Shown: in pieces, positions 10,900 through 57,480 of the stretch
How positions within the stretch are numbered: position 1 is the stretch's first letter
Layout of the letters: each line of letters opens with the position of its first letter
Virus record (IMG/VR): IMGVR_UViG_3300012953_000019
Location: 52,287-116,286 of that record
From: a virus
Direction: 5' to 3' (one strand)
DNA length: 64,000 nucleotides
Program-made: the position numbers and the translations under genes
The notes under the pieces: model-generated
The model's database searches: none
Told to the model about the DNA's origin: nothing
Seen by the model: the letters and a program-made list of their open reading frames with translations, nothing else

Positions 10900-10930
10900 A
10901 AGGCAGAGCATACCACTCTGCCTTTATTTT
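10900..10930 (+). terminator. Rho-independent terminator
   Basis: 9-bp stem AAGGCAGAG/CTCTGCCTT, 7-nt loop, followed by TATTTT. Confidence 0.7.
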
Positions 10931-37454: not shown

Positions 37455-38933
37455 ATGATTACTGTCACTAAGAAAGATGAAGTACATCTTTTAATAGACA
37501 CTGATCCAAGTACCGCAAAAGAAATAGTAGAGTTCTTTACATTTGAGGTACCTGGCGCAAAATTTATGCCTGCCTACAGAAATAGAATGTGGGATGGCAA
37601 AGCACGAATGTTTAATATGTACACAAGAGAACTATACGTTGGTCTTTTAGATTACCTTATAGAATTCTGTGAGCAGTTAGAATATAAAGTAGAAATCAAA
37701 CTTGACGAGATTGGAGAAGATGGCACACTTGATCAAGTAACAAAATTCACAAAGTCTTTAAATCTACATAGTCAAGATAAGCCTATTGATATTAGAGACT
37801 ATCAACTAGAGGCAATAACTCATGCGATTAACAATGGTCGATCTCTTCTTCTATCTCCTACTGCTAGTGGTAAGTCTCTTATCATTTACAGCCTTCTACG
37901 TTATCACCAAGCACACGGACGTAAACAGCTTATCATCGTGCCAACGACTTCCCTCGTTGAGCAAATGTGGGGAGATTTTAATGACTACGCATCAAAAGAT
38001 GAATGGCAAGCAAACAAATATTGTCATAGAATCTACAGTGGCAAAGACAAATCAAACAAAGCCGCAGTTGTAATATCAACTTGGCAATCAATATACAAAT
38101 TTCCTAAATCTTGGTTTGATGAATTCGATGTAATCTATGGTGATGAAGCACACAACTTCAAAGCAAAATCTTTAACTACATTGATGGATAAACTTACCAA
38201 CGCAAAATATAGAATAGGTACAACCGGTACACTTGATGGTACAAAAACGCATAGACTTGTTTTAGAAGGAGTTTTTGGTAGAGTCTACAAAGTAACTACT
38301 ACAAAGAAGTTAATGGATAATAAGCAACTGGCTGAGTTGAAGATTGTTTGTTTACTTTTAGAATACTCTGAAACAGAAAGAAAACTAGTAAGTAAAATGC
38401 CATATCAAGAAGAAATGAATTGGTTAGTAACCAACCCAAAAAGAAATGCAGTCATAACAAATTTATCTATTGCACAAACTGGCAACACATTAGTACTCTA
38501 TCAATTTGTTGAAAAACATGGAGCAGTACTACATAAAATGATAAGCGAAAAGGTAAAAGATGGTAGAAAAGTATTCTTTGTCCATGGAGGTACAGATACA
38601 GAACAAAGAGAAGAAATTCGCCACTTGACAGAGCAAGAAAAAGATGCTATAATCATTGCTTCATATGGTACTTTTTCTACGGGTATAAATATTAGAAACT
38701 TACATAATGTTGTTTTTGCTTCACCAAGTAAGTCTCGTATTAGAAATCTACAATCAATTGGTAGAGGACTTAGAAAAGGTAATCAAAAAGAAGCGTGTAA
38801 CTTATTTGATGTTGGAGATGATCTCTCTTGGAAATCAAAGAAAAATTTTACACTTAACCATATGTTAGAACGAATTAAAATTTACAACGAAGAATCTTTT
38901 AATTATAAGATAGCAAAGGTAGAAATTAAATGA
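37455..38933 (+). CDS. uvsW: SF2 helicase UvsW
   Basis: RDYQ, SPTASGKS, GDEAH, GTTGT, STGINI, QSIGRGLR. Confidence 0.95.
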   Translation: MITVTKKDEVHLLIDTDPSTAKEIVEFFTFEVPGAKFMPAYRNRMWDGKARMFNMYTRELYVGLLDYLIEFCEQLEYKVEIKLDEIGEDGTLDQVTKFTKSLNLHSQDKPIDIRDYQLEAITHAINNGRSLLLSPTASGKSLIIYSLLRYHQAHGRKQLIIVPTTSLVEQMWGDFNDYASKDEWQANKYCHRIYSGKDKSNKAAVVISTWQSIYKFPKSWFDEFDVIYGDEAHNFKAKSLTTLMDKLTNAKYRIGTTGTLDGTKTHRLVLEGVFGRVYKVTTTKKLMDNKQLAELKIVCLLLEYSETERKLVSKMPYQEEMNWLVTNPKRNAVITNLSIAQTGNTLVLYQFVEKHGAVLHKMISEKVKDGRKVFFVHGGTDTEQREEIRHLTEQEKDAIIIASYGTFSTGINIRNLHNVVFASPSKSRIRNLQSIGRGLRKGNQKEACNLFDVGDDLSWKSKKNFTLNHMLERIKIYNEESFNYKIAKVEIK

Positions 38934-45826: not shown

Positions 45827-45855
45827 TTGACTTTTGCCGTAACACCTGTCATAAT
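45827..45855 (+). promoter_or_regulatory. sigma70-type early promoter for vWA gene
   Basis: TTGACT-17 nt-CATAAT. Confidence 0.75.
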
Positions 45856-45881
45856 GTATATATAAATGAGAGAGGTTGTTT

Positions 45882-48209
45882 ATGGAAATTAATCAGAAAT
45901 CAAATTTGGCTAAATTACTAGCCACTGAGAATCTGTCAGTAGAGCATCAAAATGTCTCTACTGCGGCTTTCGATTTGAAAGCACGTAAAGTTATCTTACC
46001 TAGATGGGTCGAGATGGCTCCAGAACTCTATGATCTATTTATTGGTCATGAAGTTAGTCACGGTCTAGAAACACCGCCTGAAGGGTGGCATACTGCCACT
46101 TGTAATCGAGGTGGTGGTTTCAAATCATTCCTCAATGTTATTGAAGATGCACGTATTGAAAAATTAATCAAGTTACGTTACCCTGGCATAGTAAAATCTT
46201 TTGCTAAGGGTTATGATATCTTACTGAAGAAAGATTTCTTCGGATTGAAAAATACAGAAATCTCTGAACTCCCTCTTATCGATAGAATCAACCTTCACTT
46301 CAAGGGCGGCTCAATGTTGGCTGTTCCTTTTAGTGCTGAAGAAATGCCTTTTGTAGATGCAGTTGCTAAATGTAATACTTGGGATGAAGTTGTCGAACTA
46401 GCCAACTCTCTCTTTGAACATTCTAAAACTGAAGAAGCAATGCAAAATCAGATGCAACCAGATGATGATCTTTTTGGTGATGATTCTGATGATGATTATG
46501 AATATGATTCTGAGTATGGTGAGTCAGATGTTAGTGAGCCTTGGGATGATCCAGAATCTGGTGAAGAATCGGATGATTCAGATGGCGATTCTTCTGATGA
46601 CAGTGATGACAGTGAAGATGGTGAAGATAGCGAGTCTTCCGAAGAGACTGACACTTCTAATGCTACCACTGGTGAAGAGTCTGAAGAGACTGAAGAAACC
46701 AACGAGACTTCTACTGAAAAAACTTCAGACGGCGATATCAACAAAGGTTCTAGCGATGGTTCATTAGAACCTGAAGCAATGACTGATACAAATTTTCGTG
46801 AGAGAGAAAAAGAACTGATCAAAAGTGATGGTCTTGAAACTCTCAATGTGACGTGGCCTAAACTGATTACTAAAAAGTTAGTTATGCCTTGTGCTGAAGT
46901 TTGGAACTTTGAGACTACCTACAATGAATGGAATGGACCAAAGTATACCCCGGCAGAAGCAGAAAATATTCTTCTGAAAAAATTCCAAACAAAACATAAG
47001 ACAACTATTAATCAGTTGGTTCAGCAATTCGAAATGAAAAGAAAAGCTACCGCGATCAAAAAACAACGTATCAATAGCACTGGTAAGTTGAATGAAGATA
47101 AATTGTGGGCATACAAACTGACTGACGATTTATTCTTATCATCAACCACTGTACCCGATGGACAAAACCACGGTATGCTAATGTTGTTAGATATGTCTGG
47201 GTCAATGTACCAACAGATGAGATCAACATTAGAACAATTAATGATCCAAGTTGCTTTCTGTAAAAAAGTAAATATCCCATTCAAAGTTTATGGTTTCAGT
47301 AGTTGTACAAATAGCTACCAGACTCGGTGGTCAGATTTGATCAGAGATCCTAAAGTTGGTGATATTCATTGGGACGATGTTCAAGTTGGTTTGGTAGAAT
47401 TAATTACTTCCGATCTCGGTGCCGCACAGTATACAAAAGTTTTCAAAAAACTTCTGGGTTACTCCACAGTATTTGGTAATTACTACCGCGGCGATGATGA
47501 TTTGTATGTTGAGATGGACAGACATTGTGCTCCTAGACACCTTAACTTGGGTATGACTCCTCTTGCTGAGGGTATTATGATTCTCCGTGACATTGCAATT
47601 GAGTTCAAAGAATCAAAATCTCTTGAAGTATTGAATACTATTATTCTCACTGATGGTGATAACTCCACTACATTGGAAACGATTGGTGAAATAAAAGAGT
47701 TTGATAGTGGTAGCAGTTATGCTAGTCCAGAAAGATACTACGGAAGAAAGTTTTCCGATGTCTTTATCAAAGAAGGTCCTATCACTACCGCAATCAAGAG
47801 TGAAAGTGGTTACGGTGCACCTGCTCCTCGATACAATCATTTTTCAAATGCAATGATGAAACACTATCAAGCCACTACTGGTTCTAGAATGATTGGTTTC
47901 AGATTGGTCGAGCCTACAATAAGAAAAGCCCGCGATCAATTCATGAACGCTATTGACGGCTGGGATTATGATGCATTCGACAAAGCCAAAAAGACTTGGA
48001 CTCCAGATAGATTTATTGAAGTACCAAATGCTACCGCGTATGATGCACTCTACCTTATCAAAGGTGGTAGAGGACTTGAGGTTGAAGATGGTGAACTTGA
48101 GGTCAAATCTACCAGCAAGGGTGATTTAAGACGTGGTTTTAAGAAGTTTGCCATGAATAAATCATCAAGCCGAGTGTTTTTAAATCGCTTCATTGAGAAA
48201 GTTGCGTGA
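45882..48209 (+). CDS. CobT-like protein: HExxH peptidase-like N-domain, acidic linker, vWA domain
   Basis: GHEVSH, RIEK, D/E/S-rich linker, MIDAS DMSGSM, TDG; ATG 45882 fits the GAGAGAGG SD. Confidence 0.75.
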   Translation: MEINQKSNLAKLLATENLSVEHQNVSTAAFDLKARKVILPRWVEMAPELYDLFIGHEVSHGLETPPEGWHTATCNRGGGFKSFLNVIEDARIEKLIKLRYPGIVKSFAKGYDILLKKDFFGLKNTEISELPLIDRINLHFKGGSMLAVPFSAEEMPFVDAVAKCNTWDEVVELANSLFEHSKTEEAMQNQMQPDDDLFGDDSDDDYEYDSEYGESDVSEPWDDPESGEESDDSDGDSSDDSDDSEDGEDSESSEETDTSNATTGEESEETEETNETSTEKTSDGDINKGSSDGSLEPEAMTDTNFREREKELIKSDGLETLNVTWPKLITKKLVMPCAEVWNFETTYNEWNGPKYTPAEAENILLKKFQTKHKTTINQLVQQFEMKRKATAIKKQRINSTGKLNEDKLWAYKLTDDLFLSSTTVPDGQNHGMLMLLDMSGSMYQQMRSTLEQLMIQVAFCKKVNIPFKVYGFSSCTNSYQTRWSDLIRDPKVGDIHWDDVQVGLVELITSDLGAAQYTKVFKKLLGYSTVFGNYYRGDDDLYVEMDRHCAPRHLNLGMTPLAEGIMILRDIAIEFKESKSLEVLNTIILTDGDNSTTLETIGEIKEFDSGSSYASPERYYGRKFSDVFIKEGPITTAIKSESGYGAPAPRYNHFSNAMMKHYQATTGSRMIGFRLVEPTIRKARDQFMNAIDGWDYDAFDKAKKTWTPDRFIEVPNATAYDALYLIKGGRGLEVEDGELEVKSTSKGDLRRGFKKFAMNKSSSRVFLNRFIEKVA

Positions 48210-48248
48210 AATCAATAGCTTGGAGCCAAAAATAATTGAAGAAAAAGG

Positions 48249-48277
48249 TTGACATATGCCTTGGCTCCAGCTATAAT
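48249..48277 (+). promoter_or_regulatory. sigma70-type early promoter for MoxR/cobS-like operon
   Basis: TTGACA-17 nt-TATAAT. Confidence 0.85.
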
Positions 48278-48318
48278 GTATGTATAAATTGAGTTAACCC
48301 TTTTGAGAGAGGTCTATT

Positions 48319-49533
48319 ATGATGAATCAACTAACTACCCAAATGTTTGCTAATGACAAACAAGAACAAGAAGTCGGATCAATTATTTCCGCACTTCAAC
48401 AAACTGACAATCCTAGTGGTGTTTTTACCCGAAGTGATTTGAATCAGATTGCAGATCAACTTGGAATTTCTAAGCAAGGTTCTGCACTCGGTTACATCGT
48501 GGAAAATTATGCCGTGTCGCGAGGTAAATATACTTTTGGTGACAACGGTCCAATCGCTCAGATTGTCCCACAATCTGCGGCTCCGGTTGCAGTTATTGAG
48601 ACTAAAGCCCCGGAGAGTAAAATTTTGACCCAAGCTAAATTGTCAATTGAGATTGATAATCTTATTCCTGAGAAAGATTCTACCTACGTTCCTTTTGGAT
48701 TCTACAAAGATTTATCCAGTATTGTAAAATCTGGTGTGTTCTATCCAACTTTCATCTGCGGTCTGTCCGGTAACGGTAAGACTATGATGGTCGAGCAAGT
48801 ATGTGCCAAACTTAAAAAAGAAGCGATCCGAGTCAATATCTCCATCGAAACTGATGAAGATGATCTGATTGGTGGTAATACACTGGTTGATGGTAATGTG
48901 GTCTATCGTGAAGGTCCTGTACTGACTGCTATGAAGCGAGGTGCGATCCTCATTCTAGATGAAATCGATAGAGGCTCTAACAAGTTGATGTGTCTGCAAG
49001 CGATACTTGAAGGCAAACCATACTTTAACAAGAAAACTGGTGAGGTAGTTACACCTCAATCTGGTTTCAATGTTATCGCTACTGCTAATACAAAGGGTCG
49101 AGGCTCTGATGATGGCAAGTTTATGGGTGCCCAAGTTCTTGATGAAGCATTCCTCGAGAGATTTGCAATTACTGTTGAGCAAGAATACCCTTCAGCGGCT
49201 CAAGAGAAAAAAATTGTTCTCAACAAAATGGCTGTTCAAGGTTGTGTTGATGATGAGTTTGCCGACAAGTTAGTTACTTGGGCTGACGTTATCAGAAAGA
49301 CTTTCTATGACGGTGCGATTGATGAGTTGATCTCAACCAGAAGGCTAGAACACATTGTCAAAGCATTTGCTATGTTCAATGATAGACTCAAAGCCATTCA
49401 GTTATGCGTCAACAGATTTGATGTGGACACCAAGTCTGCTTTCATCGACCTCTACACCAAAGTAGATGCCGGTGTGAGTATGGAAACCTCTGAAGAAGTT
49501 GTAGAGACAACTGAAGTATCGGAGGACTTTTAA
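48319..49533 (+). CDS. cobS: MoxR/CobS-like AAA+ ATPase
   Basis: GLSGNGKT, LILDEID, ATANTKGRG, AFLERF, ISTRRL. Confidence 0.85.
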   Translation: MMNQLTTQMFANDKQEQEVGSIISALQQTDNPSGVFTRSDLNQIADQLGISKQGSALGYIVENYAVSRGKYTFGDNGPIAQIVPQSAAPVAVIETKAPESKILTQAKLSIEIDNLIPEKDSTYVPFGFYKDLSSIVKSGVFYPTFICGLSGNGKTMMVEQVCAKLKKEAIRVNISIETDEDDLIGGNTLVDGNVVYREGPVLTAMKRGAILILDEIDRGSNKLMCLQAILEGKPYFNKKTGEVVTPQSGFNVIATANTKGRGSDDGKFMGAQVLDEAFLERFAITVEQEYPSAAQEKKIVLNKMAVQGCVDDEFADKLVTWADVIRKTFYDGAIDELISTRRLEHIVKAFAMFNDRLKAIQLCVNRFDVDTKSAFIDLYTKVDAGVSMETSEEVVETTEVSEDF

Positions 49534-49817
49534 TGCCTAAACCAGACTACAAGTTTAGGGAAGATGAACTGTTAGAGGAGTTCAAAACCTACATAGATAA
49601 GACCTATCAGGGTCACTATGGTCAGGGTGGACTCCAATCTTCCGAAGTGATTGTAGATCGTGGTCATGGTATGGGGTTCTTCCTTGGTAATGTCGATAAG
49701 TATAATGGTCGATACGGCAAGAAAGGAACTCCTGAAGATCATAGAAAAGATATTGTTAAGATTATCCATTATGGTTTCTTGGCATTGTATGAACATGATA
49801 GGAAAAATTCAAAGTGA
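49533..49817 (+). CDS. Conserved phage protein, DUF3310-like
   Basis: HY...GNVDKY..RYGKKG...KDIVKIIHY. Confidence 0.6.
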   Translation: MPKPDYKFREDELLEEFKTYIDKTYQGHYGQGGLQSSEVIVDRGHGMGFFLGNVDKYNGRYGKKGTPEDHRKDIVKIIHYGFLALYEHDRKNSK

Positions 49818-50929
49818 ATCGGTTAGCTATCACAGGAATAGGATTAGTGGACAATCTTGGGAATAACCCAATGGATTGTTTTACTGAATATCAAACTGGT
49901 CCCATTCCCATTCCTGTTGATGGTAGTTTTTCTGCACAAAAAGATAATTTAATTGAAGTAAAGGCTCCTATTTACAATCGCCTATTAGATGTGAATAAGA
50001 TATCATTACATACTGTAGCCGATGCATTGAAAACAATACCATATTCGGATAATGTATTTACTTTATTCTCTACACTCACTGCTGGTAATACCACGTTTCA
50101 GGACTACGGTACCGACTTGTCTGATGGTAAGAATAGAGTTAAGCCACGACAGTTGCTACAGGGTTGTAGAGACTTCACCGCGGGTCTCATAGCGCAATCG
50201 TTTGGATTTACAGGTGGTGCTACCAGTTTTAATTCTGCTTGTGCTACAAGTCTCTACCAATTGGACTATGCGTTTCATTTGGCAAAACGATATGACTACA
50301 TAGTATGTGGTGCTGGTGACTCAGCAAATAATTTATGGGACTCTACCTTTTTTGATAAGCTAGGTGTCCTAGGTTCTAAGTCTGCTCCATTTGATGATGA
50401 TCGTGATGGAATAACTACTGGTGAAGGAGCAGGCTGTTTAATTTTGATGGATGTCCACAAAGCAATTGAGAAAAATATTCCAATCATTGGGTACATCTAT
50501 CAGCCAGGTATAGCTAGTGATGGTGTAGAAGGAGACTTTGTTAACCCATCTGCATTTGGATTGAAAAAAGCCATGGAGCAAGCCACACAAGGTATCGATA
50601 AGAATGATATTGGATTTGTATCTGCCCATGCTACAGGTACTTCACTGGGTGATGAATCTGAGTACAATGCAATTCAAGATATGTTTCCTTACATAGATGT
50701 TGTAGGACTCAAATCTAAACTAGGACACACCATGGCAGGTAATGGAATAATCGAATTAATATACTCGTTAATGGCATTAAAACGTAATATTATACCGAAA
50801 ACTTTTATAAATAACACCGAATATAGATACGTTACTACGAAGACCCGCGCAACTGATTGTAAATATGCGCTAAAGAATAGTCTTGGCTTTGGAGGGAAAG
50901 CCGCCTCGGTCTTAATCGAAGTAACTTAA
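49814..50929 (+). CDS. fabF: Beta-ketoacyl-ACP synthase (FabF/FabB-like)
   Basis: SACATS (Cys), SAHATGT and KSKLGHT (His-His), PFDDDRDG, GEGAG, SLGFGG. Confidence 0.85.
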   Translation: MNRLAITGIGLVDNLGNNPMDCFTEYQTGPIPIPVDGSFSAQKDNLIEVKAPIYNRLLDVNKISLHTVADALKTIPYSDNVFTLFSTLTAGNTTFQDYGTDLSDGKNRVKPRQLLQGCRDFTAGLIAQSFGFTGGATSFNSACATSLYQLDYAFHLAKRYDYIVCGAGDSANNLWDSTFFDKLGVLGSKSAPFDDDRDGITTGEGAGCLILMDVHKAIEKNIPIIGYIYQPGIASDGVEGDFVNPSAFGLKKAMEQATQGIDKNDIGFVSAHATGTSLGDESEYNAIQDMFPYIDVVGLKSKLGHTMAGNGIIELIYSLMALKRNIIPKTFINNTEYRYVTTKTRATDCKYALKNSLGFGGKAASVLIEVT

Positions 50930-50946
50930 CCAGTTCCCCTAGTGGG

Positions 50947-51005
50947 CTCAGACTGTCACTTTCGTGACCTCTCTCTCCTCTCATAAATGGAAGTGACAGT
51001 CTGAG
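50947..51005 (+). ncRNA. Long perfect hairpin with CU-rich loop; terminator and/or candidate anti-SD RNA
   Basis: CTCAGACTGTCACTT (50947-50961) and AAGTGACAGTCTGAG (50991-51005) are exact reverse complements; followed by ATTTT. Confidence 0.55.
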
Positions 51006-51009
51006 ATTT

Positions 51010-51017
51010 TATAAATA
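51010..51017 (+). promoter_or_regulatory. T4-type late promoter
   Basis: Exact TATAAATA. Confidence 0.75.
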
Positions 51018-51049
51018 GTAGTATACTAGTCAAATTTTTGGAGTAAAAA

Positions 51050-51412
51050 ATGGCATACAAATACGCAATTACATATTCAAGACCTACCACAGATGACAAT
51101 TGGTATGTAATGGATACCGATGTAGTATATACCGCAGAAGAAACTGCTAGACAAACAGTCCTTAGCGATTGGATTGAAGCTAGAAAGGCTGACGGAGATA
51201 TTACGGTAAGTTGGGAGTTCAGTGACGATCAGTTGGACTTTTCATATATTCTAACATATGAAGATGAAGCAAAATACAACGAACTAAGAGCCGCATGGGA
51301 AGTAGTTAGAGATGCCCAGTGCGATGGTATTGAACCAGAAACAGAAGCAAAGTTTGTTCAATGGAACACAGACAACAACTCTACTTTTGCAATTACTAAA
51401 GAAACTGTTTAA
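51050..51412 (+). CDS. Hypothetical acidic protein, late-expressed
   Basis: 120 aa, SD GGAG, own late promoter. Confidence 0.6.
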   Translation: MAYKYAITYSRPTTDDNWYVMDTDVVYTAEETARQTVLSDWIEARKADGDITVSWEFSDDQLDFSYILTYEDEAKYNELRAAWEVVRDAQCDGIEPETEAKFVQWNTDNNSTFAITKETV

Positions 51413-51420
51413 AAAACTAC

Positions 51421-51449
51421 TTGACTTTTGGTAGTCTACCCTATATAAT
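51421..51449 (+). promoter_or_regulatory. sigma70-type early promoter for gp45 operon
   Basis: TTGACT-17 nt-TATAAT. Confidence 0.85.
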
Positions 51450-52786: not shown

Positions 52787-52963
52787 GTGAGAAAAAAGAA
52801 TGTGAATGAAAGACGCAAAGTTGCGTTACGAAATCTTGAGAATGCAAAGTTCTTTCCGAAGCAGATCAAATCTGGTAAGAAAATGGTTGATCGATCTGAA
52901 GAAACTTGGAACGACAATCGTGATGACATGATTGAAACTTTGAACAAAAGGATCACATCATGA
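52787..52963 (+). CDS. 58-aa basic protein (not in ORF track)
   Basis: GTG start with GAGGAG SD, MRKKNVNERRKVALRNL...RITS*, ATGA overlap with gp44. Confidence 0.65.
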   Translation: MRKKNVNERRKVALRNLENAKFFPKQIKSGKKMVDRSEETWNDNRDDMIETLNKRITS

Positions 52964-57060: not shown

Positions 57061-57480
57061 ATGAGTGAAGACTTCTTTGCTATTGATTTCCCTGGATATG
57101 AACCCCTTGAAATCAAACTAAAAAAATCCGATGACTTCTTAAAGGTAAGAGAAACACTTTCCCGTATTGGAGTTGCTTCCAAAAAAGATAAAGTTATATA
57201 CCAGTCTTGTCATATTTTGCACAAGCAGGGTAGATACTTTATCACACACTTTAAGGAGCTTTTTGCTTTAGATGGCAAAGATGCAGACTTCACAGAAAAC
57301 GACATACAGCGAAGAAATACTATTGCTAAGTTGTTGTCTGATTGGGAACTTGTAGAAGTGATCGAATCAGAAAAGTTTTTTGAAGACTGCGCTCCCCTTT
57401 CCCAAATCAAAGTTCTCTCTTTCAAAGAGAAAGATCAATGGTCATTAGTAACCAAATATAACATAGGTAAGAAGAGATAA
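57061..57480 (+). CDS. regA: Translational repressor RegA
   Basis: DDFLKVRETLSRIGVAS; QSCHILHKQGRYFITHFKELFALDG. Confidence 0.97.
   Translation: MSEDFFAIDFPGYEPLEIKLKKSDDFLKVRETLSRIGVASKKDKVIYQSCHILHKQGRYFITHFKELFALDGKDADFTENDIQRRNTIAKLLSDWELVEVIESEKFFEDCAPLSQIKVLSFKEKDQWSLVTKYNIGKKR

Follow-up and report, generated by a model that had tools for sequence, protein, structure and literature searches.

In the icaR mRNA of Staphylococcus aureus, the 3′-UTR contains an anti-Shine–Dalgarno (anti-SD) motif that base-pairs with the Shine–Dalgarno (SD) sequence of its own mRNA and recruits RNase III (PMC3868564). By analogy, this is the mechanism closest to the element described here, a hairpin at the end of an early operon of a T4-like phage, with small RNAs of the C-rich-loop type also near. 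As in icaR, a pyrimidine-rich 3′ motif is the complement of the SD that precedes the opening gene of the transcript. The outcome proposed for it, in which initiation is blocked and RNase III cleaves, whether the contact is made in cis or in trans, would also resemble that of icaR. The locus differs in that the CU repeat lies inside the terminator loop of a polycistronic phage early operon and in that it could reach several other leaders.

The RNAs RsaE/RoxS, RNAIII (hairpin H14) and Cuckoo/CcsR (alpha-r14) offer a second likeness, as loop-exposed pyrimidines face purine-rich SD sequences and the stems vary while the loops are fixed. The terminator hairpin H14 of RNAIII is itself a seed-bearing loop. 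The motif of the phage element is CUCUCUC, in contrast to the UCCC or CCUCCUCCC of these RNAs. Unlike the small RNAs with C- or CU-rich loops, it is encoded by lytic T4-like phages and is fused to the terminator of an operon.

T4-like phages also carry promoter-early stem-loop cassettes (PeSLs), which are multicopy elements that flank variable ORFs and have a short stem and a small loop, followed by an early sigma70 promoter (PMC2839356, PMC4122927). The present element likewise joins a terminator stem-loop to a promoter, within an intergenic spacer of a T4-like genome and near accessory genes. Its membership of the PeSLs was rejected because it is single-copy, has a loop of 20–30 nt and precedes a late promoter, TATAAATA, in 19 of 20 variants. 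The window, which is the whole stretch of DNA analysed, covers 64 kb at the 3′ end of a virus contig of 116,286 bp (36% GC, estimated to be 70% complete). Rfam returned no match at the gathering score anywhere in the window, and the hits of a permissive scan of 50880-51060 were all at chance level and well short of that score. A full-text search of the literature turned up no account of an element of this kind in T4-like phages. The additions made here are the form embedded in the terminator of the cobS operon, a set of 20 covarying variants and negative covariation tests.

A conserved hairpin at the end of the cobS operon

The gene content is that of a T4-like phage, and essentially all genes and promoters of the window lie on the + strand. 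The gene order is gp46-like SbcC, peptide deformylase, a ClpP-like protease, a 775-aa phrog_459 protein, cobS, DUF3310, beta-ketoacyl synthase (KAS), the hairpin, a 120-aa ORF, gp45 and gp44. The 775-aa protein is the product of the gene that had been called vWA (CobT-like) when the DNA was read without database searches, hereafter the sequence-only reading. A nucleotide search of cultured phages gave no relatives of the contig, and the best identity of its gp45 to those of cultured phages is 39%. The T4-type late promoter sequence TATAAATA is enriched in the window, with 16 of 17 copies on the + strand against 7.4 expected.

The hairpin lies directly 3′ of the KAS stop codon and carries its own U-tract (Table 1). 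The sequence-only reading had placed it at the 3′ end of a cobS-fabF operon, and it does end the early operon of cobS, DUF3310 and KAS. As the early unit (vWA, and cobS to KAS) adjoins a gene with a late promoter only, the hairpin sits where insulation is needed. At the other end of the operon, a 9-bp inverted repeat (TGGAGCCAA ... TTGGCTCCA, 48221-48269) brackets the −35 box of the cobS promoter. This repeat had been listed separately in the sequence-only reading, as part of a duplicated vWA/cobS leader cassette.

Table 1. Features of the hairpin locus in window coordinates, with the loop sequences of relatives.
Feature	Position	Strand	Sequence or remark
vWA early promoter	45827-45855	+	similar to that of cobS
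vWA RBS	45868..45876	+	GAGAGAGGU (GAGAGAGGT); 9-nt loop complement; ends 5 nt before the ATG at 45882
cobS operon early promoter	48249..48277	+	consensus sigma70-type TTGACA-17-TATAAT; scores 12/12; kept in relatives
cobS RBS	48305..48314	+	GAGAGAGGUC; 10-nt perfect complement of loop 50966-50975; ends 4 nt before the ATG
Operon closed by the hairpin	48319..50929	+	cobS (AAA_5/CbbQ_C), DUF3310 gene, KAS
5′ mini-hairpin	50937..50946	+	CCC-UAGU-GGG; predicted fold; weak in the window
Main stem, 5′ arm	50947..50965	+	19 nt, outer 15 pairs perfect; fold, inverted repeat
Loop	50966..50986	+	GACCUCUCUCUCCUCUCAUAA; two CU-repeat tracts (anti-SD-like seed) and an A/U-rich 3′ part
Main stem, 3′ arm	50987..51005	+	fold, inverted repeat, covariation
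U-tract 3′ of the stem	51007..51010	+	4 U (A-UUUU); overlaps the late promoter
Late promoter of the 120-aa gene	51010..51017	+	T4-type, TATAAATA; directly after the A-UUUU tail
120-aa gene	51050..51412	+	late promoter only; followed by gp45
gp45 early promoter	51421-51449	+	
Loop, L065-L072			GUGACCUCUCUCUCAAUUGCAACU
Loop, L286			GCCUCUCUCACUCUCUCUCAAUU
Loop, L287			ACCUCUCUCUUACUCUCUCACAAGAA
Loop, L281			GACUCUCUCACUCUCUCAAAU
Loop, L280			UUACUCUCUCACUCUCUCAAAUA

The exact 15-bp stem described in the sequence-only reading is real. It is a perfect inverted repeat at 50947-51005, the longest in the whole 116,286-bp contig, and as RNA it extends with wobbles to 19 pairs that enclose a 21-nt loop. 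The fold has a dG of −34.3 kcal/mol and a z of −5.4, with 0 of 200 shuffles folding equally well. The loop is unpaired in both the MFE and the centroid fold.

Relatives were collected in IMG/VR with the KAS, ORF120 and gp45 proteins, and further ones through a cobS profile in metagenomes, the covariance models R1 and R2 and a loop-pattern scan. Exact-word scans of IMG/VR (stem 15-mer, loop 14- to 17-mers) were discarded, the matches being mostly due to chance, e.g., L048 inside a coding region. Twenty distinct versions share one fold, which consists of a small 5′ hairpin, a stem of 13–19 bp, a loop of about 20–30 nt and a U-tract. In an alignment that was fitted to the model and so favours structure, 96.9% of the cells of these 20 sequences are paired against 31–41% with partners slid, which is a very large margin over the controls. 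Compensatory changes are present at 21 of 22 pairs overall, at 17 of 18 in helix 2 and, in alignments A6/A7, at all four pairs of helix 1, the 5′ mini-hairpin. This mini-hairpin has a stem of 4–6 bp in the relatives and a GNRA-type tetraloop in some clades.

A C-G to A-U double change is already seen in the stem of the 97% clade. In the 80% clade the hairpin is identical, though the adjoining coding sequence differs, and in more distant clades the stem sequence is wholly different. A stable stem-loop with a directly adjoining U-tract is found in the window and in all 20 variants, the tract consisting of 4–8 U in the relatives. The hairpin is a genuine conserved RNA element.

Models R1 and R2 detect a single copy in the 116-kb contig, and the complete relative G001 (165 kb) likewise has one. 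The position is fixed as vWA-cobS-DUF3310-(KAS)-hairpin-ORF120-like-gp45-gp44, with KAS present only in the clade of the window. It is kept despite identities to the window of 44–50% for gp45 and 26–39% for ORF120. The one variant that lacks TATAAATA after the hairpin is L070, which has TATAAAAA. The carriers of the element are a clade of uncultured marine T4-like phages. It is absent at more distant cobS loci (at most 61% identity), those examined having ordinary small-loop terminators, and the gp45 loci of other lineages are likewise without it. At four of the distant loci (L296, L323, L330 and L357, cobS 52–54% identical), the cobS RBS is a GA repeat and an ordinary GC-stem/UUCG-type terminator follows cobS; a CU-loop RNA could lie elsewhere in these genomes.

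The loop core CUCUCUC is invariant in 20 of 20 variants while the stem sequence turns over completely. The usual layout is of two strictly alternating CU tracts with different flanks, and the A/U-rich 3′ part varies between clades. The loops of intrinsic terminators usually measure 3–8 nt. The sequence-only reading had considered the loop far larger than a terminator needs, and this has held, with 21 nt in the window and about 20–30 nt in the relatives. A simple scan for terminators with loops of up to 8 nt missed the hairpin, and the other terminators of the phage genome have small loops (e.g., 10900-10924). Because the stems change freely, the CU tracts are fixed and the other terminators are small-looped, the variants indicate that the oversized loop is under selection of its own.

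Complementarity between the loop and early leaders

The loop tract GACCTCTCTC (RNA GACCUCUCUC), which spans 50966-50975, is exactly the reverse complement of the GAGAGAGGTC found at 48305-48314. The matches to the RBSs of cobS (10 nt) and vWA (9 nt) had been pointed out in the sequence-only reading, and both proved exact. In the 116-kb contig, GAGAGAGG is found only in three places, the cobS, vWA and loop sites. Among composition-preserving shuffles of the loop, a complement of at least 10 nt to the cobS initiation region arises in 0.075%. The corresponding figure for any of 123 initiation regions is 8%, so the match in a single genome is suggestive only and its weight comes from conservation in the relatives. 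CU and GA repeats are of low complexity, and matches between them therefore come cheaply.

In every clade that carries the element, the cobS RBS is a GA repeat, and it is kept as GAGAGAGGUC(A) in four clades. The unpaired pyrimidine motif has complements of 7–13 nt in the cobS and vWA leaders of every clade. Across 10 clade types, the contiguous match between a loop and its own cobS RBS is 10 nt in the window and L281, 11 nt in G001, G002 and G003, 13 nt in L282 and L280, 9 nt in L286 and 7 nt in L287/L289. Within most loci the best-matching initiation regions are those of cobS and vWA, both behind early promoters.

The RBS form had also been noticed only at vWA and cobS. This stands in the 70%-complete contig of the window and fails in complete relatives, where about 6–11 mostly early leaders share the form. 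In G001 (complete, 165 kb), GAGAGAG occurs 13 times on the gene strand, 11 of them at RBSs and 10 just downstream of sigma70-type promoters. About half of the early leaders of this genome are GA-type by reading, while a first-ATG rule flags only 5 of 23. The second complete genome, G006, has about six such leaders. Many early leaders also have a AAAUUGAG box in common, shortly after the −10 (G001, G002, G003 and G006; 48288-48295 in the window), which is complementary to the 3′ end of several loops (CUCAAUU). A phage-encoded ribosomal protein S21, sought as a link to altered SD use, is absent.

Specific covariation between loop and RBS, which the sequence-only reading had named as a check, was not found. 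There is no diagonal excess, as foreign loops match the cobS leader equally, with off-diagonal matches of up to 14 nt. At the level of the regulon, own and foreign loops are equal on the GA leaders of G000 (the genome of the window), G001, G002 and G006. Since the CUCUCUC/GAGAGAG core never varies, the covariation test is low-powered and cannot prove pairing. The genome-wide scan of the loop did not single out the proposed target either: RNAduplex ranks cobS about 12th in G000, where it is not a clear outlier, in a whole-genome scan dominated by noise from bulged GU-rich duplexes. The complementarity thus holds robustly between two classes, loops with CU repeats and leaders with GA repeats, rather than as a demonstrated one-to-one match.

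Thermodynamic estimates give −17.3 kcal/mol for the 10-bp duplex of loop and cobS leader, with opening costs of 0.1 for the loop and 4.7 for the leader site. The cobS leader with the canonical 16S anti-SD reaches only −9.6. Given an encounter of the two RNAs, it is plausible that the loop could rival the ribosome at the cobS site.

Several further observations concern the leaders. A CC(C)UUUU tract just 5′ of the cobS SD (48296-48313 in the window; also G001, G002 and G003) is kept in four clades. It pairs with part of GAGAGAGG in the MFE fold and could form a local, weak SD-masking hairpin. An extension of the pairing, between CCUUUU at this place and AAAGG of the loop, was tried by eye and set aside, as it fits the G002-type clade only. 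In G001, the leader of a 309-aa gene after gp44 (148425-148441) reads AUGAGAGGAGAG, which complements the second loop tract over 12 nt. A leader homologous to that of G001 precedes an extra 58-aa ORF with a GTG start in the window (52787-52963), with a match of 7 nt only.

A similar hairpin is found in the Methylophilales phage Melnitz (MZ577097) at 38547-38600, with the loop ACCUCUCUCUCGACUUUCUCUCUCA. It shares with the window hairpin a long stem, a loop with two CUCUCUC tracts and the presence of GAGAGAG-type RBS leaders in the same genome. Its unit (38,513-38,640) consists of a sigma70-like TTGACT-17-TATGAT promoter, the 14-bp hairpin and then a separate small-loop terminator. The window hairpin, in contrast, has neither a promoter of its own nor a separate terminator, and the Melnitz unit lies elsewhere in the genome. 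Model R2 matches the Melnitz hairpin too weakly (19.9 bits, E 0.25) to establish common descent, the loop architecture being alike and the stems unrelated. The 59-aa hypothetical CDS annotated here, MelnitzEXVC044M_66 (38547-38726; L490 4548-4727), starts inside this unit and probably encodes a small RNA and not a protein. That the Melnitz hairpin has its own promoter and stands alone favours an RNA-level function able to act in trans.

A further hairpin, with the loop UCCUCUCUCUCACUCUCUCUAAAU and then a normal terminator, is present on the minus strand of G009 (L488, IMGVR_UViG_3300020475_000135) at 330-720. After that terminator there are early-type promoters whose leaders carry AAGAGAGAGAGAAUUAUG. 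None of the neighbouring proteins of the window was detected in the first 8 kb of G009 by tblastn. This fragment suggests that the pairing of CU-loops and GA-leaders is wider than the cobS-linked family.

Proposed function of the element

The reading that we prefer, with a probability of roughly 0.5, is that of a terminator which doubles as an anti-SD RNA, in the manner of the icaR 3′-UTR or of the small RNAs with C-rich loops. The steps of termination, pairing and repression that we infer are as follows. As an intrinsic terminator, the element would end the transcripts of the early cobS operon as well as vWA transcripts running on into that operon, and termination would keep early transcription out of the late-only downstream gene. 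The loop would display one or two CUCUCUC tracts to the GAGAGAG-type SD leaders of the early-gene class. Its best match in the window is the leader of cobS, with which the same transcript begins. Pairing could occur in cis as a contact between the 5′- and 3′-UTR, or in trans, with a stable fragment of the terminator serving as a 3′-derived small RNA. It would block the ribosome-binding site and perhaps create a substrate for RNase III. In this way cobS and vWA may be under feedback control, or the early genes with GA leaders may be shut off. A 3′-derived small RNA or loop-RBS contact had been proposed in the sequence-only reading; the position at the operon end, the selection on the loop, the clade-wide complementarity and the stand-alone form in Melnitz speak for it, while an RBS form exclusive to the two genes and a specific covariation of loop and RBS found no support.

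The alternative that survives best, though we consider it doubtful, is that the loop is a sequence-specific site for a protein, such as a phage RegA-type repressor or a host single-stranded RNA-binding protein. The terminator would then also recruit or titrate this protein. A loop that is kept as a displayed single-stranded motif agrees with this, as does the absence of covariation between loop and target. A RegA homologue (PF01818, 158 bits) is encoded at 57106-57468 of the window, about 6 kb downstream, and also in both complete relatives. RegB was not detected, in a search that had no positive control. The A/U-rich 3′ parts of the loops (AAUUG, AAAUG, AUAAAUG) loosely resemble T4 RegA sites. 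It is the alternating CU tract that is invariant, however, and the A/U-rich part that varies between clades. We know of no bacterial or phage protein that recognizes CUCUCU. A protein site would also leave unexplained why mirror-image GA repeats occur exactly at RBSs of the same genomes.

It is unlikely that the loop acts only locally, by pairing with a GA tract in the downstream late leader to form a pseudoknot upon read-through that tunes termination or the next gene, with no long-range or trans action. The clade of L287, L289, L290 and L291 fits this idea. Here the loop matches best, above its cobS match, with the late leader that directly follows the hairpin; this leader starts TATAAATAAGAGAGTAAGAA (about 5100-5136 in L287), and its AGAGAGUAAGA, immediately after TATAAATA, is an 11-nt perfect complement of the adjoining loop. 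Several other clades have a GA tract of 6–7 nt 3′ of the late promoter. The window, G001, G002 (L067) and L069 nevertheless have no GA tract after TATAAATA, and in L070-L072 the loop is unchanged although the downstream gene and the late promoter have been replaced.

An ordinary intrinsic terminator, whose big CU-rich loop is functionless and persists by descent or mutational bias, appears improbable. The U-tract in all variants and the site at the end of an operon are as this would predict, and a low-complexity loop readily finds matches among GA-rich RBSs. It does not account for stems that have been rewritten many times around an invariant loop core, for the length of the loops beside the small ones of other terminators, or for a similar loop on an unrelated stem in Melnitz.

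Action at the level of DNA is very improbable. The element would be a cruciform or single-strand hairpin, or an operator that shares a GAGAG/CTCTC box with the early promoters and is bound with them by one DNA-binding protein. The same duplex motif does occur downstream of early promoters and in the loop, and covarying stems would also suit a hairpin of single-stranded DNA. The strict strand orientation argues against it, since the GA form always lies on the coding strand, spaced from the ATG as an RBS would be, and the CU form in the loop. A U-tract and a place at the end of an operon mark a terminator, and the Melnitz element lies between its own promoter and terminator. Finally, the minus-strand alternative offered in the sequence-only reading, in which the tract is the RBS of a three-codon minigene (GAGAGAGAGG-N8-GTG ACA GTC TGA in the window, with L065 happening to have ATG ACT ACC TAG), can be dismissed, as it is not conserved (L067 and L069 lack a start codon), its putative codons fall within the covarying stem, and essentially all genes and promoters of the window are on the + strand.

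Implications for T4-like phages

To our knowledge, hardly any regulatory small RNA has been described from a strictly lytic phage, and the abundant marine T4-like phages have none in the catalogues. The covariance models R1 and R2 can be used to annotate elements that are now missed or called small ORFs, as in the case of gene 66 of Melnitz.

A wider and decidedly speculative proposal is that the element functions as an RNA timer. Stable hairpins, one from each round of early transcription, would accumulate and come to occlude the GAGAGAG leaders of the early-gene class. This would be an RNA-only counterpart of the RegB/RegA shut-off of T4, terminator-embedded or stand-alone, in several abundant marine T4-like lineages.

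If the loop of the terminator masks GA-repeat RBSs, the 3′ end of an early operon would be a translational regulator in these phages. It would exert feedback on the cobS/vWA pair or shut off a class of early genes, and it would explain why the unusual GAGAGAG form of leader has been retained.
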